A stretch of 64,000 nt of DNA from Alphaproteobacteria bacterium (GTDB lineage Bacteria > Pseudomonadota > Alphaproteobacteria > UBA828), in assembly GCA_965221125.1 (NCBI GenBank), contig CBDCRW010000003.1, positions 288,001-352,000 on the forward strand, in the 5' to 3' direction. This document shows, piece after piece, positions 11,217-43,661 of this stretch (position 1 is the stretch's first letter; every line of letters starts with the position of its first letter). Below the pieces are notes generated by a model. The model did no database searches and had not been told where the DNA came from. It saw only the letters and a list, made by a program, of their open reading frames with translations. Position numbers and translations under genes: made by a program.

Positions 11217-11223
11217 CTCGCCC

Positions 11224-19482: not shown

Positions 19483-20784
19483 ATGAACAAACACATTAGT
19501 ACCGAAGAATTTCTCTTGAAAAAAGCAGGAGAAGATACCGAATTTCGCGCGCGTCTCCTCGCCAGACCCAAAGAAACGATCGAAAGCGAGTTCGGCGTAA
19601 CGCTGGACAAGAACCACACGATTTGCGTGCACGAAGAAAGCGATACCGCGACGCATCTGGTACTTCCGCCGCGCAGCAAGCTCGGCGAGGAAGAACGGGA
19701 AGCCACGAGAACCGGCGCCGCATCGCTCGCGTTCCTTCGCAAGACGCTCCACGACCCCGCGCCGCCGCTTCGCCCTCCCGCCCCTCGGCGTGCGCGCGCC
19801 CCAACGAGCGCTGCGACCCCCGCAGCACTTGCAAGAGCGGGCCGAGACAGCATCCGCCGCGCTCTCGAATTCCTGGAAACCACAATTGACGAGAACGGGG
19901 CCTGGCACTGCATCCGCTTCAACATGGCCGACCCGGACATACCCCGGCATTTCGAACGACCCGCCTTCGTTTCCGCTCTCTGTGTGCTTGCCCTGGAATG
20001 TTGCGGCGACGCGCGGGCCAAGGCCATGTGCACCGCCGCAAAGGCGTATCTCGCTGATACCATCGAATATCCGGGGCTGTGGCGCTACTACCGCCATCTG
20101 CCCCAAGACCTCGACAGCACGACGCTCTGTTCGCTTGTTATCGGCACCCATCCCTGGATTTTTCTGGGACGAAACGTGCCAACAATCTTGGCGAACCGCG
20201 ACGAGAACGGGCTGTTCAGAACCTGGGTGCTGGCGGAAGGCGAACCCGACGTCGTGGCGCCCTTTCGCATCGAAGCCGACCCCGTCGTCAATGCGAACGT
20301 CATCGCCTATCTCGGCGACCGCCCCGAAACGAGGGATGCCCAGCGGTGGCTGGAAGGCTTGATTGCCGAAGGCAGCCTGGAGGGCTCCTCCAAGTGGTAT
20401 CCCGACGCGGTCGCGATCTGCTACGCAATCGCCCGCGCCATGATCCGCGCGGCGCCTGCCCTCGAACACTCACGCCCGGTCCTCGCGGAGCGCATCCTGA
20501 ACCTGCGCGACGAAGACGGAGGGTTTGGCAACATCCTCAAGACCGCGCAGGCCGTCTCGTCGCTATACAACGTCGGACGCCTTGAAAGCCTCGACGCGAA
20601 ACGCACGGTGGAAGAGTTCACAAGTACGCAGCGAGAGGACGGAAGCTGGCCTGAGCTTCTCGCGTTTGGCGATCAGTACCTGAAGTGGGGAGCGGTGGGG
20701 CAAATCGGGCATGGCTCCGAAGCCGTAACCTCTGCCTTTTGTATCGAAGCTCTGGAACGCCTTGTAGAACTATTGGAGTCCTGA
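19483..20784 (+). CDS. NHLP leader domain fused to a class II terpene cyclase / prenyltransferase-like alpha-barrel
   Basis: aa 1-78 align without gaps to the precursor leader (30/78 identical by hand); Pro/Ala linker; QW-like repeats IDENGAW, RDENGLF, RDEDGGF, QREDGSW; acidic motif PQDLDST. Confidence 0.8.
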   Translation: MNKHISTEEFLLKKAGEDTEFRARLLARPKETIESEFGVTLDKNHTICVHEESDTATHLVLPPRSKLGEEEREATRTGAASLAFLRKTLHDPAPPLRPPAPRRARAPTSAATPAALARAGRDSIRRALEFLETTIDENGAWHCIRFNMADPDIPRHFERPAFVSALCVLALECCGDARAKAMCTAAKAYLADTIEYPGLWRYYRHLPQDLDSTTLCSLVIGTHPWIFLGRNVPTILANRDENGLFRTWVLAEGEPDVVAPFRIEADPVVNANVIAYLGDRPETRDAQRWLEGLIAEGSLEGSSKWYPDAVAICYAIARAMIRAAPALEHSRPVLAERILNLRDEDGGFGNILKTAQAVSSLYNVGRLESLDAKRTVEEFTSTQREDGSWPELLAFGDQYLKWGAVGQIGHGSEAVTSAFCIEALERLVELLES

Positions 20785-20861
20785 AGGATTTACAGGCTGC
20801 GTTACTCGGTGGTAACATGAATTTCACGACGATCTATCTCTAGTCCATTAGAGAAGCTGCC

Positions 20862-22487
20862 ATGCCGCAAGACACGGCCGTTGGCGGTGACATGGCCCCG
20901 AACAAGGCTGAAGTCACGCGGCACGTTGCGCCGTCGTTTCTCAACGCCCTGCCGCACTATCTGCCACTGGGCATATTCCCGCTGATCGTGATTGCCGCGC
21001 TCTACGGCGGCTGGTGGTTGTTGCCGGCCTTCGTGTTCATGGGCGTCGCGGGGCCGCTCGATAGGGCGCTCGGCCTCGACGGGCGCAACATGGACCCGGC
21101 GATGACGTCGGAACGGCGCCTCTTCTGGCACAATCTGCCGGTCTGGGTCTGGGCGTTTCTCTGGCCAGCGACGCTGATCTTCGCCATGTGGCAAATCCTC
21201 GTCGCGGATCAGTTCGCCCTTTGGGAAGACGTGCTGCTGGCGATCATTCTGACCATGGAAGCGCAGGCCGTGTTCGTGGTCGGTCACGAGCTGGTTCATC
21301 GCCGCGCGACCTGGGAAAGGCGGCTCGGAGAATTCCTGCTCGCCTCCGCCTCCTATCCGCAATACGCCACGGAGCATGTCTATATCCACCATGCCAAGGT
21401 CGGCACGCCGCACGACGTAGGCTCCGCGCCCAAGGGGGAAAGTTTCTGGCGATATTTCCCCAGGGAAGTCGCAAGCAACCTCACCAACTCCTGGAAAGTC
21501 GCCGGCGAGCGCCTGGCACGGCGCCGGTTGCCCGTGTGGCATTACAGCAATCCGTTCTGGCGCTACGGCATCGCCCTCGCGTGCTGGTACGGGCTGGTGT
21601 TCTGGATGAGCGGCGGCTGGGCGGTGCCGGTCTTCGCCTTCCTCGGGCTCTGCTGCGTCTTTTCCATGAAGATCAGCAATTATTTTCAGCACTACGGGCT
21701 GCGCCGCATCCGTCTGCCCAACGGCCGGTGGGAGAAGGTATTGCCGCGCCATTCCTGGAGCGCCGACTGGAAGTTCAGCAACTGGATGTTCTTCAACATG
21801 CAGCGCCATGCGGATCACCATGCCGCCGCATCCCGCCACTACCCCCTGCTCCAGGCTCTCGGCTCCGACGAATCGCCGGTCCTTCCGGGAACATATGCCG
21901 ACATGATGAACATCGTGCTGCGGCCCAAGCGCTGGTTCGCGAAGATGGATCCGCTGGTCGATCAATGGCGCGCGCACTTCTACCCGCAGATCGACGACTG
22001 GAGCGCCTACGACAGCCGCCTTTCCGCCGCGCGGCCCGACGCCTTCGAGGCGATCGTCGAGATCTTCGGCGCGGCCCCGCGGCTTGCGGCGTGGATCGAA
22101 CGCAATTCGGAGCTCCTGGATAACCTGCAGGACCGCGAGTTCACCGACCTCGACCTGCCGAAGGGATTCGGACCGGACCAGGAATACGAAACCATCGCGC
22201 GGCGCGGGCTCGCGCGACTCTATTGGACGCACGAAATGGGCGTCCCGGACCTGAAGGACCGGGTCTCCGAATTGCCGATGGCCGATGCCAGGGAAGCCGC
22301 CGAGATCGTGCGGAACTGGTCGAACGACAAGGCGTTCCAGATCGGCATGCACGTGGTGCGCGGAAATCTTTCTCCGGCCGAGGCACAGATCGCGCTCTCC
22401 AACCTGGCCGAGGCGGCAGTCTCCACCGTGCTGGCTGCCGTCGCTGCGGATCGCGTCGACCGCGCCGGGTGTTGTTTTCCGGTCTAG
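20862..22487 (+). pseudogene. 5' part of a transposon-split AlkB-type membrane di-iron monooxygenase / GlnE-like fusion
   Basis: His boxes HELVHR, EHVYIHH, NYFQHYGL, QRHADHH; GlnE-like helical region follows; last five residues CCFPV come from the transposon end. Confidence 0.8.
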
Positions 22488-23474: not shown

Positions 23475-23519
23475 CGTGACGATCCCGGGGCCAGGGAGTC
23501 CCTGAACGAGGATCGCACC

Positions 23520-24848
23520 ATGAACAGCTCAGACGACGACCTTCGCCAACAGATCGCGCTCTTCCGATACGACGTCATCGCCGATCTGGTGCATCTGCCC
23601 GTGGGTGCACCGGGTGCCGGCGCGATGATGCGCGCCAAAGCCGAGAAGACCTACACGATCCCCGGAACCACCAGGACCCGGGTCGCCGCCGAGACCATGC
23701 GGCGCTGGATCAAGGACTACCGCTACGGCGGCTTCGACGCGCTCTACCCCAAGCCCCGCACCGACCGGGGGAAGCCCCGGCGGCTGCCGCCCGAGGTCGC
23801 CGAGCGCCTCATCGCGCTGAAGACCGAGAACGACGCATTGTCGGTTCGCGCCATCATCCAGAAGGTCAAGGAGGAGGGTATCGACCACCCGCTCGCCTCG
23901 TCCACCGTGCACCGCCTCTTCAGCCGCGAGGGCCTGTTCGACAAGAAGCCGCCCGACGGGGCGGATCGCCGCCGCTTCGCCTTCCGGCATGCCGGCGAGA
24001 TGTGGATGAGCGACGTCATGCACGGACCCAAGGTCCGGCACGGCCGAACCCGGCGCAAGACCTACCTGATCGCCTTCATCGACGACGCCACCCGCGTCAT
24101 CCCGTTCGCCGCCTTCGCCATGGCGGAGAACACTGCGGCGTTCCTGCCGGTGTTCAAGGACGCGCTGATCCGGCGCGGCCTCCCGGCCCGCTTGTACGTC
24201 GACAACGGAAGCGCCTACCGCTCCCGTCATCTCTCCCTGGTCTGCGCCAGGCTCGGCGTTGCGTTGATTCACGCAAGGGCGTTCCAGCCAGCGGGAAAGG
24301 GTAAGATCGAGCGCTTCTTCCGCACCCTCCGGGCCGGCTGGCTCCGCCACCTCGGCGATGACGTCGACAGCCTGGAGGCGCTCAACCGCAGCCTCTGGGC
24401 CTGGATCGAGGGGGAGTATCACAACAGCCCGCATCGTGGCCTCGACGAGGGGCGCACCCCGCTTGAGCAGTGGGCGCTGGCCTCGGCCGGCGTGCGCTAT
24501 CCCGACGCCACCATGGACCTCGACGATCTGTTCCTCTTCGAGGCCAGGCGCCGTGTCTACAAGGACCGCACCGTTAGTCTGAACGGCCGCGTCTACGAGG
24601 TCGACGCCCTCCTGGTGGGTCAGAACGTCATCCTGCGCTACGACCCGGCCGCGCCGCCCTCGCGCCCTCTCGACGTGGTCCATGACGGCAAGCCGGCCGG
24701 CAAGGCCAGCCCTCTCGACGCCTACGCCAATACCGCCGTCAGGCGCACCTACCCGGCCAGGGAGATCGAGGCCGAAGATCCGGCGCCCGAGCCTCCGCCC
24801 TCGCCGCTGGCCATGCGCAACCTCAAGGACAAGAAGGAGGACGAGTGA
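23520..24848 (+). CDS. DDE transposase/integrase with N-terminal HTH and Mu-type C-terminal domain
   Basis: WMSD (D), YVDNGSAY (D), GKGKIERFF (E); RRVYKDRTVSLNGRVYEV. Confidence 0.93.
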   Translation: MNSSDDDLRQQIALFRYDVIADLVHLPVGAPGAGAMMRAKAEKTYTIPGTTRTRVAAETMRRWIKDYRYGGFDALYPKPRTDRGKPRRLPPEVAERLIALKTENDALSVRAIIQKVKEEGIDHPLASSTVHRLFSREGLFDKKPPDGADRRRFAFRHAGEMWMSDVMHGPKVRHGRTRRKTYLIAFIDDATRVIPFAAFAMAENTAAFLPVFKDALIRRGLPARLYVDNGSAYRSRHLSLVCARLGVALIHARAFQPAGKGKIERFFRTLRAGWLRHLGDDVDSLEALNRSLWAWIEGEYHNSPHRGLDEGRTPLEQWALASAGVRYPDATMDLDDLFLFEARRRVYKDRTVSLNGRVYEVDALLVGQNVILRYDPAAPPSRPLDVVHDGKPAGKASPLDAYANTAVRRTYPAREIEAEDPAPEPPPSPLAMRNLKDKKEDE

Positions 24849-25648
24849 TGTACCTGCGCCACTTCGCCTTCACCCGCCTGCCCTTCGAGACCCCGGCAGA
24901 GACCGACGAGCTGTTCGAGTCCAACGCGCGCCGCGAGGCCGAGGCCAGGCTCGGCCACCTCATCGACCTGCGCGGCATCGGCCTGCTCACCGGCGAGGTG
25001 GGCTCCGGCAAGACCACCGTGTGCCGGCATCTGACCGCGCAGCTTCATCCAGGCCTCTACCGGGTCCACTACGTCTCGCTGACCACGGGCAACGTGCTCG
25101 ACATGTACAAGGCGATCGCGTGGGAGATCGGCCTGCCCATCGAGCGCTCCCGCGCCTCGGCCTATCAGGCCATCCGAAACGAGATCTCCCGCCTCGTCAC
25201 CGAGGCCAAGCAGCTGCCGGTCCTCGTCATCGACGAGGCCCATCATCTGCGCAACGACGTCCTTGAGGACCTGCGCCTGCTCACCAACTTCGCCATGGAT
25301 GCAGAGCAGCGCCTGTGCCTCGTCCTCGTCGGTCTGACCGAGCTCAGGCGCCGCCTGGCCATGGCCATGCACGAATCCCTCAGCCAGCGCCTCGTCGTCC
25401 GCCACCACCTGAGCGGTCTCGACCGCGACGAGGTCGACGCTTACATCAAGCACCGCCTCAGGCTCGCGGGATGCGAACTGCCGCTGTTCGAAGAGCCCGC
25501 CGTCGAGGCCCTGTTCCAGGGCGCGCGCGGCCTGCCGCGCCAGATCAACCGCATCGCCCACTACGCGCTCTCCGCCGCCGCTCTCGACGAGGCGAGGACC
25601 GTCAGTGCCGACCACCTGCAGCACGCGCTCGAGGAACTGCGGCCATGA
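24848..25648 (+). CDS. ExeA-like AAA+ ATPase (transposition helper, TnsC/MuB-like role)
   Basis: GEVGSGKT, VIDEAH, GLPRQIN; coupled to the transposase stop. Confidence 0.88.
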   Translation: MYLRHFAFTRLPFETPAETDELFESNARREAEARLGHLIDLRGIGLLTGEVGSGKTTVCRHLTAQLHPGLYRVHYVSLTTGNVLDMYKAIAWEIGLPIERSRASAYQAIRNEISRLVTEAKQLPVLVIDEAHHLRNDVLEDLRLLTNFAMDAEQRLCLVLVGLTELRRRLAMAMHESLSQRLVVRHHLSGLDRDEVDAYIKHRLRLAGCELPLFEEPAVEALFQGARGLPRQINRIAHYALSAAALDEARTVSADHLQHALEELRP

Positions 25649-26685
25649 CCGGCTTCCCGACCCGCGCCCCGATCGAGCTGGAGGAGCGGCCGCGCGAGCA
25701 GCAATGGCTGGTGGACACGCTATGGGGCGAGCAGGCCGTCGGCATCGTCGGCGGCGAGCCGAAGTGCGGCAAGTCCATCCTGGCGCTGGACCTCGCGGTC
25801 GCAGTCGCCGCCGGCGTCCCATGCCTGCGGCACTTCGCCCCGGCCCGGCCTGGCCCGGTCCTGCTGTTCGCCGCAGAAGACGCCGGCCACCTCGTGCGCA
25901 AGCGCCTGCAGGGGATCGCCCGCGCCGCAGGCGCCCGCTTCGAGACCCTCGACATCGCCGTCATCGACGTGCCCACACTGCGCCTCGACCATCTCGACGA
26001 CCGCCGCCGCCTGCAGCAGACCGTGGAGCGCATCGCACCGCGCCTCGTGGTCCTCGACCCCCTGGTCCGCCTGCACGGCGTGGACGAGAACACGGTTGCG
26101 GACGTCGCCCCGATCCTCGGCTTCCTGCGCGACCTGCAACGCCGCTTCGAGACCGCCGTCCTCCTCGTCCACCACGCCCGCAAGAGCGGGGCCACGAGGC
26201 CGGGGCAGGCCCTGCGGGGCAGCAGTGAGCTGCACGCCTGGGGGGACTCGAACCTCTACCTGCGCCGCCGGGACCGGCAGACCCTCATGACCGTCGAGCA
26301 TCGCGCCGCACGCGGTCTCGACGACATCGAGATCGAGCTCAAGGAAGACGGAGAGGAGCCCTCCTTCCGGCTGCGCCAGCCGCCCACGGCCGGCGGCGGG
26401 GCGCCTCAGCCCGAAACACCCGAATGCCGCGTTCTCAAGGCGCTCGCCGACGCCGGGGCGCCGCTCTCGCAACGCCAGATCCGGGAACGCGCCGCGACCC
26501 GGCACAAGACCGTCGGCGTAATCTTGCAAAAGCTCGTCCAGGAGGGTCGCGTCGCGCGCAACGCCGAGGGCGGCTACAGCGTCGTCGCAGGCGCAGCGGA
26601 CAAGCGGGCGGCGGCCGCCGCCGCCAACGGCAGCAGTCGGCCGCAGGCCCCGCGGTTCCCGGAGCCCGGTTCCGCCAACGCCTAG
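25645..26685 (+). CDS. RecA-fold AAA_25 / RepA-like helicase with C-terminal winged HTH
   Basis: WLVDTLW, GEPKCGKS, AAED, VVLDPL, LVHHARK, RGSSEL; C-terminal LSQRQIRE...LQKLVQEGRV. Confidence 0.8.
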   Translation: MTGFPTRAPIELEERPREQQWLVDTLWGEQAVGIVGGEPKCGKSILALDLAVAVAAGVPCLRHFAPARPGPVLLFAAEDAGHLVRKRLQGIARAAGARFETLDIAVIDVPTLRLDHLDDRRRLQQTVERIAPRLVVLDPLVRLHGVDENTVADVAPILGFLRDLQRRFETAVLLVHHARKSGATRPGQALRGSSELHAWGDSNLYLRRRDRQTLMTVEHRAARGLDDIEIELKEDGEEPSFRLRQPPTAGGGAPQPETPECRVLKALADAGAPLSQRQIRERAATRHKTVGVILQKLVQEGRVARNAEGGYSVVAGAADKRAAAAAANGSSRPQAPRFPEPGSANA

Positions 26686-27914: not shown

Positions 27915-27946
27915 ACGCGCCGGCCGATCCGGCCCGAAAAACCTGA

Positions 27947-30265
27947 ATGCCGGCGCAGACGGACACGCAGCCCCCGCGCGGGATACTGACCAGAACGACG
28001 CTTGCGGACCGGGGCGCCGTCACGCTCCCCGCGCTCGCCCCGCACCTGCAGTTCCGCGATATCGGCGAGCGGCAGACGCTGCTGGTCTCGGAATCGTTCA
28101 ACACGCTGCTGCACGGCGCGCTCCACTGCGATCTGCTGCCCCTGCTCGATGGCCGGCGCCCGCAGGACGAGATCGTCGCGGCGCTGGAGGGCGCCCACGC
28201 CGCGGCGGACGTTCGTGCGGCCATCACCGCGCTCGCCGCCAAGGGCTATGTCGTCTCCGCCGATCACGGCATGGAGCGGTGCCGGGCGGCCTACTGGTCG
28301 TCGCTCGGCGCATCGCCGCGCTGGGTCGAGGAGCGGCTCGCGGAATCGCGCGTCACGGTGGAAGGCGACGACGGCCGCCTGGTCCGCCATCTGCGAGAGA
28401 GCGGCGCCAGCGTGGGGGCTGGCGACCCGACGCTCACCGTCGTCGTCTGCGACGACTATCTCGACGCCCGCCTCGCGGACGTGAACCGGCGGCAACTCGA
28501 GGCGCGAGCGCCGTGGACGCTGCTGCGGCCGCGCGGCATGGAAGCGTTGTTCGGCCCCGTCTTTCGTGCGGACGGACAAGGCCCCTGCTGGGATTGCCTG
28601 GCGAGCCGCCTGCGCGGCCACCAGGAAGTCCACAGCTTCTTGCGCACCATTGCCGGCGAAGATGCCGCCTTCAAGCCGTTCGCGGCTCAGCCCGCGGTGC
28701 TGGAGGCGCTCTGCGGTTTGATCGCGGCGGAGATCGTCAAGTGGCTGTTGCTGGACGACGCGGCCCCCCTCCACGAACACGCGATCACGATGAACGTCGG
28801 CACGTTCGCAAGCGCGCAGCATCCGGTGATGCGCCGGCCGCAGTGCCTCGCCTGCGGCGACGACGCGTTGCATCGCCCGGACCGCCCGCCGGCGCCGCTC
28901 GCTCTGAAGGCGAGCCCCAAGACCCATCGCAACAGCGGCGGCGCGCGCACCGTGGCGCCGGAGGTCACGCTCGCGAAATACCGCCACCTGGTGAGCCCGG
29001 TCAGCGGTGTCGTGACCTGGCTGTCGCGCACGACCGACGAGACCGATCCCTGGCTGCACGTCTACTGGGCCGGGAGCAATCTCGGCATGAGAAGCCGGAG
29101 CCTGAGTTCGCTCAGGCGGAGCCTCCGCAGCAAGAGCGCGGGCAAGGGCAGCACGCGGGAGCAGTCGAAGGTCAGCGCGCTGTGCGAGGCGGTCGAGCGC
29201 TACTCGGGCGCGCGTCATGGCGACGAGATCCGCGTCCGCAGGCGATTCACGGAGTTCGCCGGGAGCGACGAGACGATCCATCCGAACGACGTGCAGCTCT
29301 TCAGCGCCGCTCAGCTCGACAACGCGAAGGCCATCAACGCGAAGGGCCACCCGTACAACGTCGTGCCTGCGCGCTTCGACCCCGACGCCGAGCGCGACTG
29401 GACGCCGGTGTGGTCGCTCACCCGGCAGCGGCATCGCTACCTGCCGACCTCGATGCTCTACAGCATGCCGGCCGAGCAGCGCGGCCCGGCGGACCTGATC
29501 GCCGATTCCAACGGCTGCGCCGCGGGCAACACGCTGGAAGAGGCCATCCTCCAGGGCTTCTACGAGCTGGTCGAGCGCGATGCGTTCGCCATCTGGTGGT
29601 ACAACCGGCTGCGCGTGCCGGCGGTCGACCTCGCCGGCTTCGACGACGCGTACCTCGCGTCCGCCCCGCAACAATACGCCCGCTACGAGCGCGCGCTCTG
29701 GCTGCTCGACGTCACCTCGGACATCGGCATTCCCGCGTTCGTCGCGCTCTCGCGCCGCACGCACGCCCGGACCGAGGACATCATCTACGGCGCCGGCGCC
29801 CACGCCGACCCGCGGTTGGCCGCGCTCCGCGCGCTCTGCGAGCTGAACCAGTGCCTCACCTGGCTGCCGCGCCCCGGCAAGGGCGACGGCCGGCCCATGA
29901 TCGACGATCCGCTGGCGCTCCGGTGGTGGAAGACCGCGCGGCTCGCCGATTGCTCGTGGCTGGCGCCGGCGGAGGACGCGCCGCTCCGCACGGCGTCGCA
30001 CTATCCGGCGATCGAGACGACGGACACGCGCGACGACGTGGAGCTGTGCCGCGCGCTCGTCGAAGCCAGGGGCATGGAGTTCCTGGTGCTGGATCAGACC
30101 CGGCCCGACATCGGCATGCCCGTGGCGCGCGTCATCGTGCCGGGCATGCGCCACTTCTGGGCGCGGTTCGCGCCGGGGCGCCTCTACGACGTGCCCGTCG
30201 GCATGGGCAGGCGCGCCCGCCCTCTCGCCGAAGCCGAACTGAACCCCGCACCCGTGATCGCGTGA
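27947..30265 (+). CDS. srpC: Fused TOMM cyclodehydratase (RRE + E1-like + YcaO)
   Basis: GPCWDCL, SAGKG, SALCEAVERY, SNGCAAGNTLEEAILQGFYELVERDA, C-terminal PAPVIA; symbol assigned by analogy to the recalled srp cluster. Confidence 0.9.
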   Translation: MPAQTDTQPPRGILTRTTLADRGAVTLPALAPHLQFRDIGERQTLLVSESFNTLLHGALHCDLLPLLDGRRPQDEIVAALEGAHAAADVRAAITALAAKGYVVSADHGMERCRAAYWSSLGASPRWVEERLAESRVTVEGDDGRLVRHLRESGASVGAGDPTLTVVVCDDYLDARLADVNRRQLEARAPWTLLRPRGMEALFGPVFRADGQGPCWDCLASRLRGHQEVHSFLRTIAGEDAAFKPFAAQPAVLEALCGLIAAEIVKWLLLDDAAPLHEHAITMNVGTFASAQHPVMRRPQCLACGDDALHRPDRPPAPLALKASPKTHRNSGGARTVAPEVTLAKYRHLVSPVSGVVTWLSRTTDETDPWLHVYWAGSNLGMRSRSLSSLRRSLRSKSAGKGSTREQSKVSALCEAVERYSGARHGDEIRVRRRFTEFAGSDETIHPNDVQLFSAAQLDNAKAINAKGHPYNVVPARFDPDAERDWTPVWSLTRQRHRYLPTSMLYSMPAEQRGPADLIADSNGCAAGNTLEEAILQGFYELVERDAFAIWWYNRLRVPAVDLAGFDDAYLASAPQQYARYERALWLLDVTSDIGIPAFVALSRRTHARTEDIIYGAGAHADPRLAALRALCELNQCLTWLPRPGKGDGRPMIDDPLALRWWKTARLADCSWLAPAEDAPLRTASHYPAIETTDTRDDVELCRALVEARGMEFLVLDQTRPDIGMPVARVIVPGMRHFWARFAPGRLYDVPVGMGRRARPLAEAELNPAPVIA

Positions 30266-30273
30266 GGACACCT

Positions 30274-31392
30274 ATGGACATTGACGAGGCAGTCGCGCGC
30301 ACTCAGGACCGTCTCGCCGAGGAAGGCGGCACCATGGGCGATCTGCTCGGGCACTTCCGCAGCAGGGTTTCGACGGCGCTTGTGGGCGATGCGGAATGGC
30401 AGCGCGTACTCGACTGCGCCGGCACGCTTCCCATCACGATGGGGGCTCTTCCCTTCGGCTTCGAGCTGCCGCTGCACGAACGCGAGCCGCAGGCGGATTT
30501 CGGCGTCTCGCTCGCGAGCGGCACCCGGCCGGCTGCGCATTTCCTGGAGCGCGCCCTCGCCGACAAGACGGATGAGACCGCGCTGGCAATCGCCCGGCTG
30601 TTCGGCCGGATGGAAAGCGAAGACTCGCCGCTGCGCGACATCGTCGGCCGCAAGCTGATGCTGGAATACGACATCGGCTCGGCAGAGGGCGGCGAACGTT
30701 CGTTGCCGGGACTGTTTCTGCGGCCCGGCGAGCGCCCGATCATGGGCGGCTGCGCTCAGGCGGACGATGTCGCCACGGTGGTCGACGCGCTCGTATCCTG
30801 CCTGGGCTGGGAGACGAACGATGCGGCGCGGGAGAACGTCAGGCGCGTTTACCTGGCGCAGCCGGAGGACACGCGCATGGATTCGTTCGGCGTGTTTCCG
30901 TCCCGTTCACGGGCAATCCGGCTCGCGATCATGGGCTTCAAGTCGGGGCGGGAAACGTGTTCCTATCTCGAAGACACGGGCTGGCCGGGCGAGACCTCGG
31001 CCGTGGCCTCCGTGATCGCCCGCTTCAGGGAGCGCGCGAACATTGTCAGGGTCGGGGTGAATATCGACGTGCACGAAGAGGGCGTCGGCCCGACGCTCGG
31101 CCTCACGCTCATCGTCAAGCAGAGATACACGAAAGAGTCGCGCTACTGGCTGGACGGCCTGACCGATTGGGACCCGTTCCTCAAGGCGCTCAGCCACGAG
31201 GACCTCGTCGTTCCGGAGAAGCTCGAAGCGCTGGCCGACTGGGTTTCGAAACCGACGCCGTTGTTTGCGAAGTCCGGGCGCTACGTGCTGCTGCGCGGCA
31301 TTCACCACATGAAGCTGGTCGTAGCCGACAATCGGCTCCGAAAGGCGAAGGCCTACGTGTTCATGGTGCTTTCCGCAGCAGCTTCCGCCTAA
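30274..31392 (+). CDS. Uncharacterised RiPP-cluster protein (372 aa)
   Basis: GAGGA RBS, ATG 9 bp after the YcaO stop, normal globular composition; motifs FGFELPL, MLEYD, HHMKL, KAKAY. Confidence 0.8.
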   Translation: MDIDEAVARTQDRLAEEGGTMGDLLGHFRSRVSTALVGDAEWQRVLDCAGTLPITMGALPFGFELPLHEREPQADFGVSLASGTRPAAHFLERALADKTDETALAIARLFGRMESEDSPLRDIVGRKLMLEYDIGSAEGGERSLPGLFLRPGERPIMGGCAQADDVATVVDALVSCLGWETNDAARENVRRVYLAQPEDTRMDSFGVFPSRSRAIRLAIMGFKSGRETCSYLEDTGWPGETSAVASVIARFRERANIVRVGVNIDVHEEGVGPTLGLTLIVKQRYTKESRYWLDGLTDWDPFLKALSHEDLVVPEKLEALADWVSKPTPLFAKSGRYVLLRGIHHMKLVVADNRLRKAKAYVFMVLSAAASA

Positions 31393-31412
31393 AATCGGCC
31401 TCGAAAGAACGA

Positions 31413-31511: not shown

Positions 31512-31763
31512 CTACCAGCAGCAGCAGAGACCGGCCGAGATGGCTTCGAGCTGCTCTTCGGTAATGTTCGGGTCCGGCGGCAACGCCAGATGCACCGTCT
31601 GCATGTCGCTCTCGTGGACCTTGATGGTCATCGATTCCGGAATCGTGATGCCCAATTCCTCGCTGATGGTGTTCTTCGGGTCCGCGAGAAGCTGTTGCCT
31701 GAAGTCCGAATCCAGAGAGGACTTCTCGACAATGTGTTGCAGCATTTCATCGCCACTTCTCAT
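31512..31763 (-). CDS. srpE: NHLP/proteusin precursor peptide, 78-aa leader + core LCCCW
   Basis: DSDFRQQLLADPK...VHE...HLALPP...ITEEQLEAISAG then LCCCW; GGAGGA RBS; symbol from recall of the LCCCW core. Confidence 0.92.
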   Translation of the reverse strand: MRSGDEMLQHIVEKSSLDSDFRQQLLADPKNTISEELGITIPESMTIKVHESDMQTVHLALPPDPNITEEQLEAISAGLCCCW

Positions 31764-31912: not shown

Positions 31913-34345
31913 TTATGGGTTCAGGGAATCCTGGTTTGGCGCGTCGACTCCTTGCTCGCGTTCGAGGGTCGGCTTCGAAGATTTCCGGTCGAGCGCAGTC
32001 AACAGCACCGGCAGCAGCGTCAAATCGGCGATGAACGCAAAGGCAATGATCATCGCGGTCAGGATCCCGACCTGCGCGGTGGGAACGAACGGAGAGAGCG
32101 CGAATATCAGGAAGCCGGCCACCAGCACGATCGTCGTCGTGAACACGGCCCGGCCGGCCGTGTCGTAGGAATAACGCACCGCTTCTTCGGGACTCTGGCC
32201 CAATTCCTGCCGCGCGCGCCGGTACTTGCTGAGAAAATGAACCGTGTCGTCCACGACAATGCCTACGGTCATGGCGACGACGACGGAGAGCGAAAGTCCC
32301 ACCTGCCCGACCGCCAAACCCCACACGCCGAAGCCCAGCGCGGCGGGAATCAGATTGGGGACGATGCTGATCAGGCCGAGGCGAAGCGATCGGAAAGCGA
32401 AAAGAAGAATGGCGGAAATGGCCAGGAGCACCACCATTGTCCCGATCAGCATGGCGCGGATGTTGCGCTGGCCGATGTAGGCGAACAGCGCGGCGGGGCC
32501 GGTGCTGTTGACGCTCGCGACATGGGCTGCGTTTTCCTTCAGCCAGGCCTCGGCGTGCGCGTTCAGGTCGAGCACCTCCTGCGACGATAGCGTCTCCGCC
32601 GATACCGACACGCGCGTGGCGGACCTGGACCTGTCGATCTGGTTGTTCACGCCCAGGCCCAGCGGAAGCGAAAGCTCGTAAAGCAGCAGGTACTGCGCCA
32701 CCAGCTCCTGGCTCTCCGGAAGCCGGTACGCGGCCGGGTCGTCGCCGTGCATGCTCTTGTTGAGCTGGCGGAAGGTATCGGTGATGACCGCCACGTGACG
32801 CACCGGCGCCTGCGCGCGGTACCACGCGGCGAAATTCGAGACGTCGGCGAGGAAAAGCGGATCGGTCGCGCCGCCCTCGGCATGCGCTTCCAGCGAGTAT
32901 TCGAGCAGGGTATTGCCGCTCAGGTGCTCGTCCATGAAATCGGTGTCCTGGCGAAACTCGACGCCTTCGTCGAAGAAATGAACCAGGACATCGTTGAGCT
33001 CGTTGCGCGGAATGGCCGCAGCCATCGCCAGCACGAACACCGCCCAGCCCAGGAACAGCATCTTCCTGTGGCGGAGCACGGAATCCGCCAGCACGTTCGT
33101 ATGCGGCAGGCGGAGCCGGCGCTCCCTTGCGGCAGGAAACGGAAGGAGCGAGAGCACGGCCGGCACAAGCCGGCGGTCCCTCGGCGCGCGAAGCGGGAGA
33201 AGCGAGAGCACGGCCGGCATGAACGTGACGGAGAGAATGAAGGAGGCCGCGATACCGATGGCGACGAAGTTGCCGAGATCGCGGTAGGGCGGCACTTCGG
33301 AAAAGTTCATGCTCAGGAATCCGAGCGTGGTCGTGAGGCTCGCCAGAAACACCGGATGCAGGTTGAGCCTCACGGCTTCGACGATGGCATCGCGCTTGGA
33401 ATCCCCGGCGCGCAGACGCTGCTGCAACGCCACGAGCAAATGCACACAGTTCGCCACCACGATCATCAGCACGATGGTCGGCGCCGGGGCTACGGGCGGA
33501 GAGAACGGCAGACCGAGCCACACGCCCAGGCCGACCGAGACGAGAATGGAAAAGACGATGACGATCCCGGTCCCCACCACGCCCGTCCAGCTGCGGGTGA
33601 GGACGCCGAGGATCACGGCCATGAGCAGCAGGCTCGCGGGCAGAAACATCATCTGGCTGCTGACCGAGGCTTCCAGGAAGGTCTGGTTGACCATGACCGT
33701 GCCGACGACGCGGAGGTCCATGCCGGGGAATTGCTGTTCCGCCTCCGCCGCGAGCGCTCTGGCGAATTCCGCGACTTCGGCCACGGCCTCCAACAGGCCG
33801 TCTTCCGGCAGCTCGACGGTGACGTTGACGACGCTGACATCGCCGTTGAGCCCCAGAATGCTGCCGGCGATGCGCGGGTCGGACAGGGCGATGTCGCGGA
33901 GTCGCGCGCGCGCGTCCGCGTCCGCCAGCTCCTGCGGATCGACCAGGTCCCGCACGTACAGATCGTCGCCGTCGGCGGTCGTGTACTGAAAATTGGCGAG
34001 CGAATCGACGCGCCGCGAAAACGGCGTGTTCCAGGCGGCCTTGGTAAGCCAGGCAGCGGCCGTGAGCGCGTCTTCGGACGTGGCATCGCCATCGTCGGGA
34101 ACGATCAGGAAGACGACGTTCTCGTTCTTCCCATAGGTGTTCTCCAGCGCTTCCAGGCCCAGAAGCTGCGGATTGTCCTCGTCGAAGAAGATCCGGTAGT
34201 TGGCGGAGAACTTGAGTTGCGTGACGCCCATCGCCGCGACCGCAACCACGAGCACCGACGCCACGATGACGATCCAGCGGGCGCCGAGCACCCGCTTCGC
34301 AAATCGCGTTGCGAACGGCTCCCTTGCTATGTCGCGCGTGTCCAC
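31913..34345 (-). CDS. MMPL/RND-family transporter
   Basis: Two repeats of TM bundles; LASLTTTLGFLS, GIVVDDTVHFL. Confidence 0.9.
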   Translation of the reverse strand: MDTRDIAREPFATRFAKRVLGARWIVIVASVLVVAVAAMGVTQLKFSANYRIFFDEDNPQLLGLEALENTYGKNENVVFLIVPDDGDATSEDALTAAAWLTKAAWNTPFSRRVDSLANFQYTTADGDDLYVRDLVDPQELADADARARLRDIALSDPRIAGSILGLNGDVSVVNVTVELPEDGLLEAVAEVAEFARALAAEAEQQFPGMDLRVVGTVMVNQTFLEASVSSQMMFLPASLLLMAVILGVLTRSWTGVVGTGIVIVFSILVSVGLGVWLGLPFSPPVAPAPTIVLMIVVANCVHLLVALQQRLRAGDSKRDAIVEAVRLNLHPVFLASLTTTLGFLSMNFSEVPPYRDLGNFVAIGIAASFILSVTFMPAVLSLLPLRAPRDRRLVPAVLSLLPFPAARERRLRLPHTNVLADSVLRHRKMLFLGWAVFVLAMAAAIPRNELNDVLVHFFDEGVEFRQDTDFMDEHLSGNTLLEYSLEAHAEGGATDPLFLADVSNFAAWYRAQAPVRHVAVITDTFRQLNKSMHGDDPAAYRLPESQELVAQYLLLYELSLPLGLGVNNQIDRSRSATRVSVSAETLSSQEVLDLNAHAEAWLKENAAHVASVNSTGPAALFAYIGQRNIRAMLIGTMVVLLAISAILLFAFRSLRLGLISIVPNLIPAALGFGVWGLAVGQVGLSLSVVVAMTVGIVVDDTVHFLSKYRRARQELGQSPEEAVRYSYDTAGRAVFTTTIVLVAGFLIFALSPFVPTAQVGILTAMIIAFAFIADLTLLPVLLTALDRKSSKPTLEREQGVDAPNQDSLNP

Positions 34346-34382: not shown

Positions 34383-37322
34383 TCATGCGACCTGCCTCCT
34401 GACCAGTTCCCTGAAGACTCCGTCGACCTCCATGAGTTCGTTGAACGAGCCGTCTTGCACGACTCGTCCGGCCTGCAGCACGTAGATGCGGTCGGCCTGC
34501 TGCAGCGTGGACAGCCGGTGGGCGATGACGATCCGGGTGGACGTGAGCAGGGCCAGGTTCTGCATGACCTCGGCCTGGCTCTCGTTGTCGAGCCAGTTGG
34601 TCGCCTCGTCGAGCAGCATGATTCGCGGGCTGCCGATCAGCGAGCGGGCGATGGTGACGCGCTGACTCTCGCCGCCCGACAGGACGGAGCCGCTGCCGCC
34701 TACCATCGTCATCATGCCCATGGGCATGGCCTTGATTTCCCGTTCGATCCCGGCCGCGCGGGCCGCCTGCCACACGTCCTCGGTGGTCGTCCCCTCGTGG
34801 TGGGCGACGATGTTGTCCCACAGATCCTGCGGATGGAGCCGCACCGACTGCGGGACCGCGCCGATCTTCCGGCGCACCTGCTTCAGGTTCAGGTGTCGCA
34901 GGTCGCGCCCGTCATAATACACCGCGCCGGCGGTCGGCCGGTCGATTCCGAGCGCGAGCCGGAAGAGCGTGCTCTTGCCGGCGCCGGATTCGCCCGCGAT
35001 CGCGACGAAGTCGCCGGGCTCCGCGCGGATCGTGACATCGTCGAGGATCAACGGGCCGTCGGGCTCGTAGCGGAAGGACACCCGGTCGAACAGGACCTCG
35101 CCGCCGAGCCGCTCGACCGGCTCTCCTTGCGCCTCGGTCTCGGGCACGGCGGCGAGCAGCGGGCGCATCTGGTCGAACGCCGGCAGCATGGCGGCAACGG
35201 TGCCGAAGGAGTCGCCGAGCCGGGCGATGGCGGCCTGGAAGGCGATGAAGACGGTGTAGACGACGAGAAAATCGCCGACCGGGCCGTTCCGCTCGCCCAC
35301 CGTGACCACTGCGCACAGCAGCACCCCGCCGGCGATAAAGGGGAGCGCGGCGCCGAATGCCCGCGAATGCCCCTCGAGCGCACCCAGCTCGAGCTCCGCG
35401 CGTTTCTGCTCGCGATAATCCTGCGCCCAGATGGCGAACGCCGAGCCTTCCGCGTTTTCCACGCGCAGCTTGGCGATCCCTCCCACGATCTGGAACAGCC
35501 GGCCGGCGACGCGGCGCACCGCGCCGATCATCCGCCCGTAGGGCGCAATCTGGCGCAGCCCGATGCCAACGGTGACCAGCAGCGAGCCGATGCTGAAGAC
35601 GAGAGCGATGCCGCCCAAGGTGGCATCGTAGAAGAAGATGACCCCGAAGACCGGAAGCAGGAAGACGACCGACAGCAGGCTGTCGGCGACGACCCCCTGC
35701 AGCCCGTCGCGGAGGTTCTGGAACGTCATGCCGGACATGGCCAGATCGCCGGCCGGGTGGCGGTGCAGCACGGCCGGCGGAAGGCGCATGAGGCGGTCCC
35801 AGAAGGCGGCTTCGACCCGCGACGCCGAGCGCCCCTCAAGCCGCATCATCGCCGTGCCCTGCAGCAGGTGAAGCATCGCGCCGAGCAGGCCGAACCCCGC
35901 CAGCGTCGCGGCCGCGGCATAGATCGCTCCGGCGCTTCCGCCCGCCACGATGTGGTTCGCGACGAAGCCGAGCGCGAGCGCCGGCAGCAGCTTGATGAGA
36001 CCGCCGGGAAGCCCGGCAAGCACCAGCCGGGCCATGTCCGGGCCCGAGCCCTGCAGGGCAAGCCGCAGCAGGTCGCTCGGCTTCACCTGCCCCGACGGCA
36101 GGGGGCGATAGAACATCCAGGCTTCGTTCTGCAGCGCGGCGGCGCGCTCCGCCGTGACGCGCACGCTGCGCCCGCTGACCGGGTCGATCTCCCGGTAGCG
36201 CCCGAACGTTCCCGGCAGCAGCGCGACCGGCTGGCCGTCCTCGGCGCGGAACGCCAGCAGGGCGTTGCTGTCGCCCCGCCACCACGTCCCCGCGTCCTTG
36301 AACCGCACGCGCCGGGCGCGCACGCCGGACGCATCGAGAATGTCGACGAGGCCGACAGGCGTATCGGAGTGCCCGGAGCGTGCCGGAATCCTGAAATCGA
36401 TTCCCCGGTGGCGGCCGATGATCTTCAGAGCATCCGCCAGAGCCGTGTCCTCGACATCGCTGTCCCGGTCGGTCGGCTGGTCGTAGATATTGAAGAGTCG
36501 CTGCCGGGCAGATCTCTCGGCCGTGCGGCGGCTGGCGACCCTGGCGCGCTCGAGATTCGCATCGTCGACCACGGCCAGCCGGCGGTTGAGGCGTTCCAGG
36601 GCGAAGGCCACCGCGTGAAAGGAGGCGAGAGTCGGCAGCAGCAGGCCTTGCCGCACCAGCGCCTCGGTCGACTTGCCGGATACCTCCGCCTCGTCCAGCA
36701 GGGTGAGCCAGCTCGTCCGCGTCAGCGGTATGGCCGCTTCGTGCGCGCCGCCCGCCCCGGCGAACTCCGCCTGGTCGATCATGTCCATGAACAGGCTCGC
36801 ACCACGCGAGGGTTCGGACACCCACACCACGCCGCGCCTCACGGACAGCGTGCAGGGGGCCAGCGTCTGGGTCACGCCGGGCTCGGCCAGCGCGGTCTTG
36901 CGCGGAAGGTAGCCGACGAAACGCGACAACTCGTCGGTGATGGCGACCAGCCACGTATCGACCTGCTCCGCCAGCTCTTCCGGATGAGCCTCGGAGAGCA
37001 GGGATGCCGGCAGGCGCTTGAGCATGGTGCCCGGCAATCCCTTGGCGATCAGGCCGAGCCGCGTTTCCTTGCCGTCGCCCTGCTCGTCCGGCGCGACACC
37101 CGGCAGCAATTGCCCCGCTTCGCGGCGCAGCAGGTGCTGCGGCGCCGCCTGCTCCACCCCGTCCTTGAATTCGACGAAGAACAGGTCGACGGCGCCCCGG
37201 TCGATGAACCAGACACTGTCCGGGTCGTCGAGCTTGACCGGCAGGTTGCCGGCGCAGGGCACGGACGTGCCGGAGCGCGCGGCGAGCGCGGCGATCGATT
37301 CGTGTTCCGGCCCGGCCTGCAT
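34383..37322 (-). CDS. NHLM bacteriocin-system ABC transporter, ATP-binding/permease subunit
   Basis: GESGAGKS, LSGGE, LLDEAT, AFWDRLMRLP; ATG at 37322 overlaps the upstream TGA. Confidence 0.9.
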   Translation of the reverse strand: MQAGPEHESIAALAARSGTSVPCAGNLPVKLDDPDSVWFIDRGAVDLFFVEFKDGVEQAAPQHLLRREAGQLLPGVAPDEQGDGKETRLGLIAKGLPGTMLKRLPASLLSEAHPEELAEQVDTWLVAITDELSRFVGYLPRKTALAEPGVTQTLAPCTLSVRRGVVWVSEPSRGASLFMDMIDQAEFAGAGGAHEAAIPLTRTSWLTLLDEAEVSGKSTEALVRQGLLLPTLASFHAVAFALERLNRRLAVVDDANLERARVASRRTAERSARQRLFNIYDQPTDRDSDVEDTALADALKIIGRHRGIDFRIPARSGHSDTPVGLVDILDASGVRARRVRFKDAGTWWRGDSNALLAFRAEDGQPVALLPGTFGRYREIDPVSGRSVRVTAERAAALQNEAWMFYRPLPSGQVKPSDLLRLALQGSGPDMARLVLAGLPGGLIKLLPALALGFVANHIVAGGSAGAIYAAAATLAGFGLLGAMLHLLQGTAMMRLEGRSASRVEAAFWDRLMRLPPAVLHRHPAGDLAMSGMTFQNLRDGLQGVVADSLLSVVFLLPVFGVIFFYDATLGGIALVFSIGSLLVTVGIGLRQIAPYGRMIGAVRRVAGRLFQIVGGIAKLRVENAEGSAFAIWAQDYREQKRAELELGALEGHSRAFGAALPFIAGGVLLCAVVTVGERNGPVGDFLVVYTVFIAFQAAIARLGDSFGTVAAMLPAFDQMRPLLAAVPETEAQGEPVERLGGEVLFDRVSFRYEPDGPLILDDVTIRAEPGDFVAIAGESGAGKSTLFRLALGIDRPTAGAVYYDGRDLRHLNLKQVRRKIGAVPQSVRLHPQDLWDNIVAHHEGTTTEDVWQAARAAGIEREIKAMPMGMMTMVGGSGSVLSGGESQRVTIARSLIGSPRIMLLDEATNWLDNESQAEVMQNLALLTSTRIVIAHRLSTLQQADRIYVLQAGRVVQDGSFNELMEVDGVFRELVRRQVA

Positions 37323-42386: not shown

Positions 42387-43661
42387 ATGATACAGCCGGG
42401 CATTGAATCTCTACGGAAGATCGCGGTCGTCGGGCGGGGAACCGCAGGGTCGCTGGCGGCTGCCAGCGTGACGAGTCTTCTCCCCGACGGCGACCACGAG
42501 CTCCACCACATTTACGACTCGCGCATTCCGGTCATTGGCGTCGGCGAAGGCAGCTGGCCGAGCCTGGTTCAGGAGTTGCAGAAACTGACGAACCTGCCTC
42601 ACGAAACCGTCCAGCAGCGCCTGAAGGGAACGCGCAAGTACGGCGTCGCATTCGAGGGGTGGGGTCGGCGCAACCGAGACTTCACGCACTACTTCACGCC
42701 GCAGCAGGTCTCCTACGCCTACCACCTCTCCGCCGACCTGATGGGGGAGCTGCTGCACGAAAGCACGCGCGCGCAACACATCGACGCGAGAGTGCTCGAC
42801 ATCAGAAGGGTGGACGGCGGCGCGCTCGTGGAACTCGAAGGCATGGCGCCGGAACGCTACGACCTGGTCTTCGATGCCCGCGGTTTTCCCAAGCAGCTTC
42901 AGCCCGAGCGCCAAATCGACATTTCATTCATCCCAACCAATACGGCCATCATCCGCCGCTGCCCGGCAATCATCGAGGAAGAACCGGATCGGCCGGCTCT
43001 GCAGCATACCTATACCCGCGCGGTTGCCCGCCCACACGGCTGGGTCTTCGTCATTCCGCTGACGGTGCACACGTCCTACGGGTACATCTTCAACCGCGAC
43101 GTCTCCAGCCAAGCGGACGTCGAGTCGGACTTCGACGCGTTCCTCAAGGCCGATGGCGTGACCGAATACGAGCAGCGCGCCGTCATTCCGTTCCCCAATT
43201 TCGTCCACCGTCGAATCTTCGATGGCGCGGTGGCGCGCATCGGCAATGCCGCAGCCTTCATGGAGCCGCTCGAAGCGACGGCGATCGTCTCCGCTCAGTT
43301 GCAGATCGGGATGGTTCTCCACATCCGTCTGAATCGCTCGATAGAACATCTCGAGCGCGACGCGCCGGTGGTCAATCGCTTCCTCGTCAACAACATGCTT
43401 TGCTACGGCCTGTTCGTCGGCTGGCACTATTCCTGCGGCTCGACGTACGACAGCCCGTTCTGGCGCCACGCGCGCGAGGGCGCCTGGCCGCAACACCGCA
43501 AGGCCGCGGCACCCGAGATGGTGGATTGTGCCGCGCTCAGCAAGTTCGATGACATGATCGCGCTGCTGAATAGGCCCGTCATCGACAAGGCGGGCTGGAA
43601 CCGGATGTGCGCGGTCCCTCTCACCAGCTATGCCCAGATGTCTCAGGGCCTCGGCTGCTAG
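42387..43661 (+). CDS. srpI: Flavin-dependent tryptophan-halogenase-family enzyme (peptidyl-Trp brominase-like)
   Basis: GRGTAG, IGVGEGS, candidate catalytic Lys in GTRKYGV, GWVFVIP (WxWxIP-like), GNAAAFMEPLEAT; precursor ends in Trp. Confidence 0.85.
   Translation: MIQPGIESLRKIAVVGRGTAGSLAAASVTSLLPDGDHELHHIYDSRIPVIGVGEGSWPSLVQELQKLTNLPHETVQQRLKGTRKYGVAFEGWGRRNRDFTHYFTPQQVSYAYHLSADLMGELLHESTRAQHIDARVLDIRRVDGGALVELEGMAPERYDLVFDARGFPKQLQPERQIDISFIPTNTAIIRRCPAIIEEEPDRPALQHTYTRAVARPHGWVFVIPLTVHTSYGYIFNRDVSSQADVESDFDAFLKADGVTEYEQRAVIPFPNFVHRRIFDGAVARIGNAAAFMEPLEATAIVSAQLQIGMVLHIRLNRSIEHLERDAPVVNRFLVNNMLCYGLFVGWHYSCGSTYDSPFWRHAREGAWPQHRKAAAPEMVDCAALSKFDDMIALLNRPVIDKAGWNRMCAVPLTSYAQMSQGLGC

Follow-up and report, generated by a model that had tools for sequence, protein, structure and literature searches.

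The 64,000-nucleotide stretch analyzed here, called the window (positions 288,001 to 352,000 of contig CBDCRW010000003.1, assembly GCA_965221125.1, Alphaproteobacteria bacterium), carries a gene in which a domain resembling the leader of an NHLP-type precursor of a peptide that is made by ribosomes and modified after translation (RiPP) is joined to a predicted monodomain class II terpene cyclase. The fusion gene lies in a biosynthetic gene cluster that also encodes the precursor SrpE. Its parts are given below in window coordinates, with amino acids (aa) numbered along the fusion protein and the basis of each assignment in brackets; AF2 denotes AlphaFold2 and pLDDT the predicted local distance difference test score.

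19483..20784, plus strand: fusion gene, 433 aa (stop-free open frame), with an NHLP-like domain, a linker and a predicted monodomain class II terpene cyclase
19483..19716, plus strand: NHLP-leader-like domain, aa 1-78 (TIGR03793, PDB 8tb1, AF2 model, identity to SrpE)
19675..19716, plus strand: degenerate recognition and cleavage region, aa 65-78 (column counts for 67 members of the fusion family and 68 of SrpE)
19717..19779, plus strand: conserved segment, aa 79-99 (column counts, pairwise identity, pLDDT)
19780..19824, plus strand: variable Pro/Ala/Arg-rich true linker, aa 100-114 (pairwise identity of 0.27)
19825..20781, plus strand: alpha/alpha-toroid cyclase domain, aa 115-433 (AF2, Foldseek, family profile against PDB)
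20107..20121, plus strand: D-L-D-S-T putative general-acid motif with Asp211, aa 209-213 (conservation, alignment to the drimenol synthase AsDMS)

The first 78 residues of the fusion protein align without gaps to the 83-aa precursor encoded in the window (31512-31763, minus strand), and 30 of the 78 positions are identical. When the precursor was shuffled 20,000 times, no shuffled sequence gave 30 identities and the best gave 18. A tblastn comparison of aa 9-78 with the precursor returned 41% identity (E = 7e-15), and the NCBIfam model of the NHLP leader, TIGR03793, matched the fusion N-terminus with an E value of 2.7e-11. The Pfam model NHase_alpha matched residues 18-70, and the closest solved structure, as judged by sequence match, was the NHLP leader 8tb1 (E = 4.8e-5). 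The AF2 model places helices at residues 7-17, 19-27, and 29-37, strands at 48-53 and 56-60, and a last helix at 69-76. This order of three helices, two strands, a Pro-rich turn, a short fourth helix, and then an invariant Gly78 agrees with the published NHLP topology (PMC10858898). Ten positions are invariant in both the fusion family and SrpE (F21, R22, L25, P29, E36, H50, E51, H58, P62, and P63), and others are fixed in the fusion family yet differ from SrpE (Arg24, His45, Glu71, Arg72, and Arg76). On these similarities, the fusion N-terminus is best regarded as a true homologue of NHLP leaders. Mean pairwise identity across its folded core is 0.64, compared with 0.27 in the adjacent variable linker, and the domain is therefore held to be under selection. 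Its mean identity is 0.34 to SrpE and 0.38 to the precursors of related clusters with an unfused cyclase; because the two distances are nearly equal, the donor of the domain cannot be named.

The region that processing enzymes read in a leader has changed in a consistent manner. Counting back from Gly78 as position -1, which is Gly in 67/67 fusion proteins, position -7 is Arg in all 67, whereas SrpE has Leu (60) or Met (8) there. Position -4 is Ala in 66 fusion proteins and Thr in the window copy only, against Ile (55) or Val (13) in SrpE, and position -2 is mostly Thr (55) or Ala (8; together 63/67), against Ala in all 68 SrpE sequences. Position -12 is hydrophobic in both families, with Leu or Phe in the fusion. 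The window copy thus reads Leu, Arg, Thr, Thr, and Gly at -12, -7, -4, -2, and -1, and the precursor in the same window has Leu at -7 and Ile at -4. The resulting Thr/Ala-Gly site is unlike the Gly-Gly or Ala-Gly sites at which leaders are cleaved, and the 355 residues that come after Gly78 are linker and enzyme, without a Cys or Trp "core." The precursors of the unfused clusters likewise retain Leu or Met at -7, a hydrophobic residue at -4, and Gly-Gly.

Positions -12 to -7 of an NHLP leader hold the LXXXXL motif bound by the brominase SrpI; changing either Leu to Ala reduces bromination and a double change abolishes it (PMC10858898). The peptidase LahT also binds LXXXXL, whereas SrpI can do without the folded core (PMC10858898). 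The folded core is instead engaged by the leader-binding domain of YcaO proteins and by LanM enzymes (PMC12455567, PMC12537861). Since the fusion has lost LXXXXL and kept the folded core, what core-reading proteins need is retained, and what the brominase and the peptidase need is gone. The leader-like domain therefore probably escapes cleavage, as judged from its residues at these positions.

Residues 79-99 of the fusion protein (AASLAFLRKTLHDPAPPLRPP; family form AASL(A/E)FLRKTLHDPAPPLRPP) form a segment specific to the fusion family. Six of its positions (Ser81, Leu85, Pro92, Ala93, Pro94, and Arg97) are identical in 67/67 proteins, its mean pairwise identity of 0.75 equals that of the enzyme domain, and AF2 models residues 90-100 with a pLDDT of 87. 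The model as a whole has a pLDDT of 86, with low confidence at residues 55-80. A preliminary description of this DNA, made from the letters alone, had reported the gap-free alignment with 30 identities and the Gly78 common to fusion and precursor, and both hold. It had also noted Thr and Arg in place of the precursor's hydrophobic residues at -4 and -7; the translation bears out both the replacement and the precursor's Ile and Leu, and the family extends the loss to a fixed trait (Arg in 67/67, Ala in 66/67). The "Pro/Ala linker" of that description is accurate for residues 100-114, with an identity of 0.27, but not for residues 79-99, which are conserved like the enzyme.

The C-terminal domain (aa 115-433) is modeled as a toroid with a pLDDT mostly above 95. 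In a Foldseek search of PDB, the top match was AsDMS (E = 7e-12), followed by the 345-aa cyclases 8pak and 8paj, MstE (E = 5e-9), 6ij1, drimenyl diphosphate synthases, and squalene-hopene cyclase (SHC). The Foldseek probability was 1.00 for AsDMS, 8pak, MstE, 6ij1, and SHC. The family profile matched the drimenol synthase chain 9mhs over 284 profile positions (E = 2e-29), and Pfam SQHop_cyclase_C matched the domain with 29.5 bits, above the cut-off of 26.1. Residues D209-L-D211-S-T align on the DLDTT motif of AsDMS, of which the entry named D333N has Asn at the Asp211 position; D209, L210, D211, and S212 are each found in 67/67 fusion proteins. The domain is accordingly assigned to the monodomain class II terpene cyclases on the basis of its modeled fold, and catalysis is predicted. 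The alpha/alpha barrel anticipated in the preliminary description is what the AF2 toroid and its Foldseek matches to MstE and AsDMS give, and the two motifs that it had listed, PQDLDST (aa 207-213) and YPDVDDTA in the SHC of the window, are both present.

The fusion gene lies in the srp (sponge-derived RiPP proteusin) cluster known from earlier publications, which is identified here by an SrpE precursor that ends in AG followed by LCCCW, together with a YcaO protein, a C39-peptidase ABC exporter with a second ABC exporter subunit, and a Trp halogenase. The LCCCW core, the thiazolines formed by SrpC, and the SrpI-catalyzed bromination of the terminal Trp define the published srp clusters (10.1101/2023.06.09.544420, PMC10286304, PMC9426513, PMC12615548). 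The remaining genes of the cluster in the window are as follows.

20862..22487, plus strand: fusion of a fatty-acid-desaturase domain with a GlnE-like (nucleotidyltransferase-type) domain (Pfam)
22839-27077, with genes at 23520..26685 on the plus strand: transposon-like block of rve/Mu-transposase, AAA_22 TniB-like, and AAA_25 with a MarR-like domain (Pfam)
27078-27914, plus strand: separate GlnE-like gene upstream of the YcaO gene (found in 36/80 loci of the fusion, described below)
27947..30265, plus strand: SrpC-type YcaO cyclodehydratase with a fused leader-binding domain (Pfam YcaO, E = 1.7e-95; TIGR03882, TIGR03604)
30274..31392, plus strand: 372-aa gene for a predicted ABBA-fold aromatic prenyltransferase (AF2 and Foldseek; previously unlisted, inside the long open reading frame 27868-31392)
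31512..31763, minus strand: SrpE precursor with an NHLP leader ending in EAISAG and the core LCCCW (translation; TIGR03793, 70 bits)
31913..34345, minus strand: MMPL/HAE3-type (HpnN-like) RND transporter (Pfam, NCBIfam)
34383..37322, minus strand: second ABC exporter subunit, TIGR03797 type (NCBIfam; start reassigned to Met140 of a long open reading frame)
37322..39526, minus strand: C39-peptidase ABC exporter, TIGR03796 type (Pfam, NCBIfam)
42387..43661, plus strand: SrpI-type flavin-dependent Trp halogenase (Pfam Trp_halogenase, E = 1.1e-44)

The 372-aa gene sits between the YcaO gene and SrpE and is absent from a plain list of open reading frames (ORFs) because its frame is joined to an off-frame shadow of the YcaO gene. 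From 30274 onward, GC content by codon position is 0.68/0.47/0.84, the normal pattern. The small ORFs at 30281-30658, 30767-31015, and 30957-31487 were rejected as genes, having the wrong codon-position GC and being off-frame shadows of the 372-aa gene. AF2 models the 372-aa protein with a pLDDT of 90 and a predicted template modeling score (pTM) of 0.90, and every match listed by Foldseek is an aromatic prenyltransferase (best E = 2e-6), including EpzP, NphB/Orf2, IptA, DMATS1, CloQ, and PriB. A protein language-model look-up likewise leads to aromatic prenyltransferase families (0.88-0.90), and homologues carry the name "hypothetical." The protein is also homologous to the N-terminal halves of two longer proteins, P0217 (360 columns aligned by blastp, E = 1e-12) and P0247 (E = 3.5e-7), the C-terminal halves of which are relatives of the fusion toroid. 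The product of the 372-aa gene is thus predicted to fold as an ABBA-type aromatic prenyltransferase, with the corresponding activity.

Two such pairings are already described in RiPP biosynthesis. According to a review, NctPC, in which an ABBA prenyltransferase and an MstE-like cyclase are joined, geranylgeranylates a Trp of its RiPP substrate and then cyclizes the chain, and ChrPC does likewise with another prenyltransferase fold (PMC13290415). The SrpE core LCCCW contains a Trp, as do the acceptors of NctPC-type enzymes, and this residue would be the candidate acceptor.

The fusion is not peculiar to this assembly, the preliminary description having left room for that outcome. With a threshold of E ≤ 0.001, a word-indexed search returned 1,077 homologous proteins; among the 120 listed, identity to the window copy is 72-100% and the length is mostly exactly 433 aa. 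A scan of species-representative genomes gave 80 loci with 62-87% identity, from metagenome-assembled genomes labeled Alpha- and Gammaproteobacteria, Nitrospirales, Gemmatimonadota, Acidobacteria, Latescibacterota, Nitrospinota, and Chloroflexota. The loci span at least seven phyla, and several record titles name sponge-associated taxa or sponge bins. Among 401 genomes drawn evenly from the window's own phylum, the family (E ≤ 1e-20) was found in one, that of the window itself. The presence of cluster genes was counted within the DNA around each of the 80 fusion loci, and for SrpE matches to the N-terminus of the fusion itself were left out.

Second ABC exporter subunit: 70/80 loci
372-aa gene: 69/80 loci
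SrpE-type precursor: 67/80 loci
C39 ABC exporter: 67/80 loci
YcaO gene: 65/80 loci
Desaturase fusion: 60/80 loci
Trp halogenase: 53/80 loci
MMPL transporter: 34/80 loci

The gene directly upstream of the fusion gene is that of the second ABC subunit in 67/80 loci, and directly downstream lie the desaturase fusion (43 loci), the YcaO gene (18), or the 372-aa gene (14). The second ABC subunit of the window has approximately 290 N-terminal residues beyond the family model, without a Pfam match. The transposon-like block lies between the desaturase fusion and the GlnE-like and YcaO genes, and none of the 80 loci contains a match to it; the window copy of the cluster is therefore interrupted. At third codon positions the fusion gene has a GC of 0.71, compared with 0.83-0.92 in neighboring genes, and G+C content is low around 20-22 kb (19483-22487; 0.62 in the 2-kb bin versus approximately 0.69 in the surroundings), which would fit acquisition of this stretch from elsewhere.

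Several observations on the surroundings and the public data stand apart from these counts. Genes for LolA-like and DUF1302-like proteins (40255-42371, plus strand) occur in 22 and 19 of the 80 loci, respectively. Together with the MMPL gene, and in a minority of loci, they hint at the export of a lipidated product. A DXP (1-deoxy-D-xylulose 5-phosphate) synthase gene and a full-length SHC gene (9303-13215, plus strand) lie approximately 6 kb upstream of the fusion gene. Neither matches any of the 80 fusion loci, and these are therefore taken to be resident genes of this genome, outside the cluster. Near-identical DNA is present in public sequencing runs of one coded host sample. A library labeled as RNA yielded nine short contigs of relatives covering parts of the gene; carry-over of DNA is possible there, and these contigs were not used as evidence of expression. 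Finally, a search for other enzymes carrying SrpE-like leaders, with SrpE as the query and restricted to longer proteins, found none, which is weak evidence; the 10 proteins returned are apparently SrpE genes whose start was called too far upstream or that were run together with a neighboring gene.

A tree was built from 121 toroid domains, including nine fusion representatives. The fusion proteins form one clade (SH-aLRT, Shimodaira-Hasegawa approximate likelihood ratio test, of 100) nested in a well-supported group of stand-alone cyclases of 300-340 aa, and prenyltransferase-fused cyclases are placed elsewhere. Because the fusions form one clade among stand-alone cyclases, a single origin of the fusion is the reading that the tree favors. 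A separate set of 80 metagenome loci was fetched with the stand-alone clade, of which 21 are srp-type. In the other 59, many of them on contigs of 1-7 kb, NHLP precursor ORFs accompany the stand-alone cyclase in 10 and a relative of the 372-aa gene does so in 11. Some of these loci also carry both ABC exporter genes, and in the rest the cyclase alone was detected, with insensitive queries. Twelve precursor ORFs beside unfused cyclases were examined, one of which is truncated where its contig stops; the other 11 have visible cores, each of them short and with one Trp (FGMMWG, YGMMWG, TAWGE..., LCWAE..., and others). In locus L127, the NHLP gene ends 51 nucleotides before the cyclase gene, and loss of a stop codon in such a layout would give a fusion of this type. 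Ten loci (L102, L104, L105, L126, L127, L131, L134-L136, and L138) combine a stand-alone cyclase, a relative of the 372-aa gene, and one-Trp NHLP precursors. They look like an uncharacterized set of terpene-peptide clusters, with no YcaO or halogenase gene in the stretches of DNA covered. Of 10 clusters of relatives looked up, none has a name.

These results suggest a pathway in which the cyclase acts on prenylated SrpE. The data show the domain architecture and its conservation, both folds, the motifs, and the linkage of the genes; the substrate, order of steps, and docking role are those we infer. The 372-aa prenyltransferase would attach an isoprenoid chain to SrpE, most likely to the Trp of LCCCW. 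Asp211 of the D-L-D-S-T motif would then protonate the prenyl chain, which the toroid cavity would fold into rings; the pair may thus be a split version of the fused NctPC-type prenyltransferase-cyclase maturases. Residues 1-78 would be a former precursor leader captured through gene fusion with its folded core retained. Replacement of LXXXXL, of the hydrophobic -4 residue, and of Gly-Gly by fixed polar or small residues would spare the enzyme bromination, cleavage, and export. The leader-like domain would then serve as a permanent handle that holds the cyclase at a pathway protein that reads the folded core, and the candidate docking partners are SrpC, the prenyltransferase, and the N-terminal extension of the second ABC subunit. 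The probability of the reading as a whole, that the cyclase acts on prenylated SrpE, is put at 0.6. Within it, we rate the docking role of the leader-like domain at somewhat short of an even chance. A complex prediction for SrpC (772 aa) with fusion residues 1-112, run with 46-row alignments, scored 0.00 twice without controls and speaks neither for nor against docking.

Several observations weigh against this reading. At the N-terminus, the TIGR03793 score of the fusion (43.2 bits) is below the curated cut-off of 50.9 bits, compared with 70 bits for SrpE. The first helix is unlike that of SrpE across the 67 and 68 sequences, and in the published model this helix is decisive for NHLP recognition by YcaO proteins (PMC12455567 / PMC12537861); mimicry of SrpE at the YcaO protein is therefore not assured. 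The stand-alone relatives lack the leader-like domain and function without it; cyclase chemistry in itself therefore does not require the domain. In the enzyme, Ser takes the place of the third Asp in the classical DxDD motif, an Asp that AsDMS lacks too. Of the four QW-like repeats named in the preliminary description, one (QREDGSW) is canonical and the other three (DENGAW, DENGLF, and DEDGGF) are degenerate. The 372-aa protein has no Pfam match at E ≤ 0.01 and no PDB sequence match at E ≤ 1. Its assignment comes from its fold (template modeling scores of 0.45-0.56) and from two of seven N-terminally extended relatives of the cyclase; the other five (extensions of 334-372 residues) show no significant match to it, one of them having a sub-threshold Trp_DMAT match. 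A search of the cluster's genes identified no prenyl-diphosphate synthase among them, and the srp papers covered, which describe only thiazolines and bromination, report no prenylated or cyclized srp product.

Other explanations of the leader-like domain place its role within the fusion protein. The domain could bind in cis to a leader-binding surface of the cyclase itself, gating or switching the enzyme (by activation or auto-inhibition) or letting it act on a substrate with a leader that is missing or tied up elsewhere, with no docking to another protein. Artificial leader-enzyme fusions that turn constitutively active are known. The enzyme-like conservation of residues 79-99 and the pLDDT of 87 at residues 90-100 fit an intramolecular contact, and the stand-alone relatives lack both the leader-like domain and this segment. 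However, the model is of low confidence at residues 55-80, and LXXXXL, the motif by which other enzymes bind leaders, is the exact part that was lost; a role in cis is considered unlikely. The domain could also be an evolutionary leftover of a precursor-cyclase fusion that only aids folding or solubility, without a specific partner. The single origin, a plausible pre-fusion gene order in L127, and the functioning of unfused cyclases in related clusters would all fit such a remnant. It is hard to reconcile, however, with the presence of the domain in every full-length member seen, with its identity of 0.64 against 0.27 in the adjacent linker, or with many fixed positions unlike SrpE (Arg24, His45, and the three others given above), which are unexpected in a decaying remnant shared by several phyla, and we regard this explanation as quite unlikely.

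Two further explanations concern the substrate and the location of the enzyme. Rather than acting on a prenylated peptide, the toroid might cyclize or bind a free isoprenoid (farnesyl diphosphate, geranylgeranyl diphosphate, squalene, or a hopanoid), with the cluster making or exporting a lipid beside the peptide. Its closest solved relative, drimenol synthase, uses free farnesyl diphosphate, and the cluster holds HpnN-like MMPL/RND, LolA-like, and DUF1302-like genes and the desaturase fusion, with SHC and DXP synthase genes 6 kb upstream in the window. The adjacency of SHC is local, however, with matches in 0/80 loci, and MMPL is found in 34/80 loci only. The fusion gene travels with SrpE (67/80) and the prenyltransferase (69/80), relatives of the toroid are fused to prenyltransferase domains, and short Trp-containing cores recur beside its relatives, all of which makes a free substrate distinctly improbable. 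The whole protein might instead be leader-bearing cargo, secreted through the two-subunit ABC exporter, cleaved or not, and acting outside the cytoplasm. The gene order, in which the second ABC subunit immediately precedes the fusion in 67/80 loci, and the invariant Gly78 are in keeping with this, but every member has polar or small residues at the positions read by C39 peptidases (-7, -4, and -2), and the passenger would be a folded toroid of 320 residues with no Cys/Trp "core" after Gly78; export of the protein is thus very improbable.

Two srp genes hitherto "unknown" can now be interpreted as encoding a prenyltransferase and a class II cyclase, and if the cyclase does act on prenylated SrpE, the cryptic srp product gains a concrete mass and chemistry to seek in sponge extracts. 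The predicted terpene-peptide hybrid would guide chemists in the choice of genes to co-express and of mass shifts to look for. SrpC and SrpE alone are reported to have given poorly modified products in Escherichia coli (PMC9426513 / PMC10286304); it might be speculated that this reflects a need for other genes of the cluster. A leader copy with a fixed, disabled motif on an enzyme is, moreover, a natural experiment that separates the folded core of NHLP leaders from the disordered LXXXXL, and the roles of these leader parts are under active study (PMC12455567, PMC12537861, PMC10858898). Published work already covers the srp cluster, NHLP leaders, monodomain class II cyclases, and prenyltransferase-cyclase RiPP maturases. 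In the literature covered, which excluded the key srp and NctPC papers and their supplements, we found no account of a leader-cyclase fusion or of a terpene cyclase in proteusin clusters. What would be new, as a tentative and still rather doubtful proposal, is a domesticated leader serving as an uncleavable handle that keeps a cyclase in the leader-reading machinery, combined with an srp product that is a brominated thiazoline pentapeptide with a cyclized terpene. The YcaO protein, the prenyltransferase, or the non-peptidase exporter subunit may be the part of that machinery that holds the handle.

The locus can be compared with four known systems. As described in later papers that cite them, the srp clusters of Nguyen et al. 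(JACS 2021) have the same precursor, YcaO protein, Trp halogenase, and two-subunit NHLP exporter as the fusion loci, and the same sponge habitat and cross-phylum spread. The accessible srp literature, to which the original paper and its supplements do not belong, describes thiazolines and bromination only and mentions neither a leader-tagged cyclase nor a prenyltransferase. It reports that srp is shared across phyla in many sponges and very highly transcribed (10.1101/2023.06.09.544420, PMC10286304), and the cluster ranks among those of highest abundance and transcription in sponge microbiomes. A 2025 survey notes that LCCC clusters contain "several genes of unknown function," and the label cryptic is still attached to the srp cluster in a 2025 review. 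Compared with NHLP leaders (TIGR03793; nuclear magnetic resonance structure 8tb1), the fusion N-terminus is alike in its folded core and in the motifs FR..LL..PK.TI, VHE, and H.xLPP but differs in having no LXXXXL, Gly-Gly, or core peptide, an enzyme following in their place. The C-terminal domain resembles MstE and AsDMS (PDB 6sbb-6sbg, 9mhs, and 9m7d; monodomain or HAD-fused) in its single toroid and Asp-centered motif. Its identity to them is 17-19%, and those enzymes lack a leader-like domain and act on free prenyl-aromatics or farnesyl diphosphate.

A further parallel is with NctPC and ChrPC (Hubrich et al., Chem 2024), which, according to the review PMC13290415, combine an ABBA or trans-isoprenyl diphosphate synthase-like prenyltransferase with an MstE-like cyclase and act on Trp in precursors with an NHLP-type leader. 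Relatives of the fusion toroid bear prenyltransferase-type N-terminal domains, like NctPC and ChrPC. As described there, however, both activities of those enzymes reside in one polypeptide, whereas the srp functions would be divided between separate genes, and the srp pathway additionally includes a YcaO protein and a brominase and has a core of five residues. Where NctPC and ChrPC carry a prenyltransferase, the srp cyclase carries its leader-like domain.

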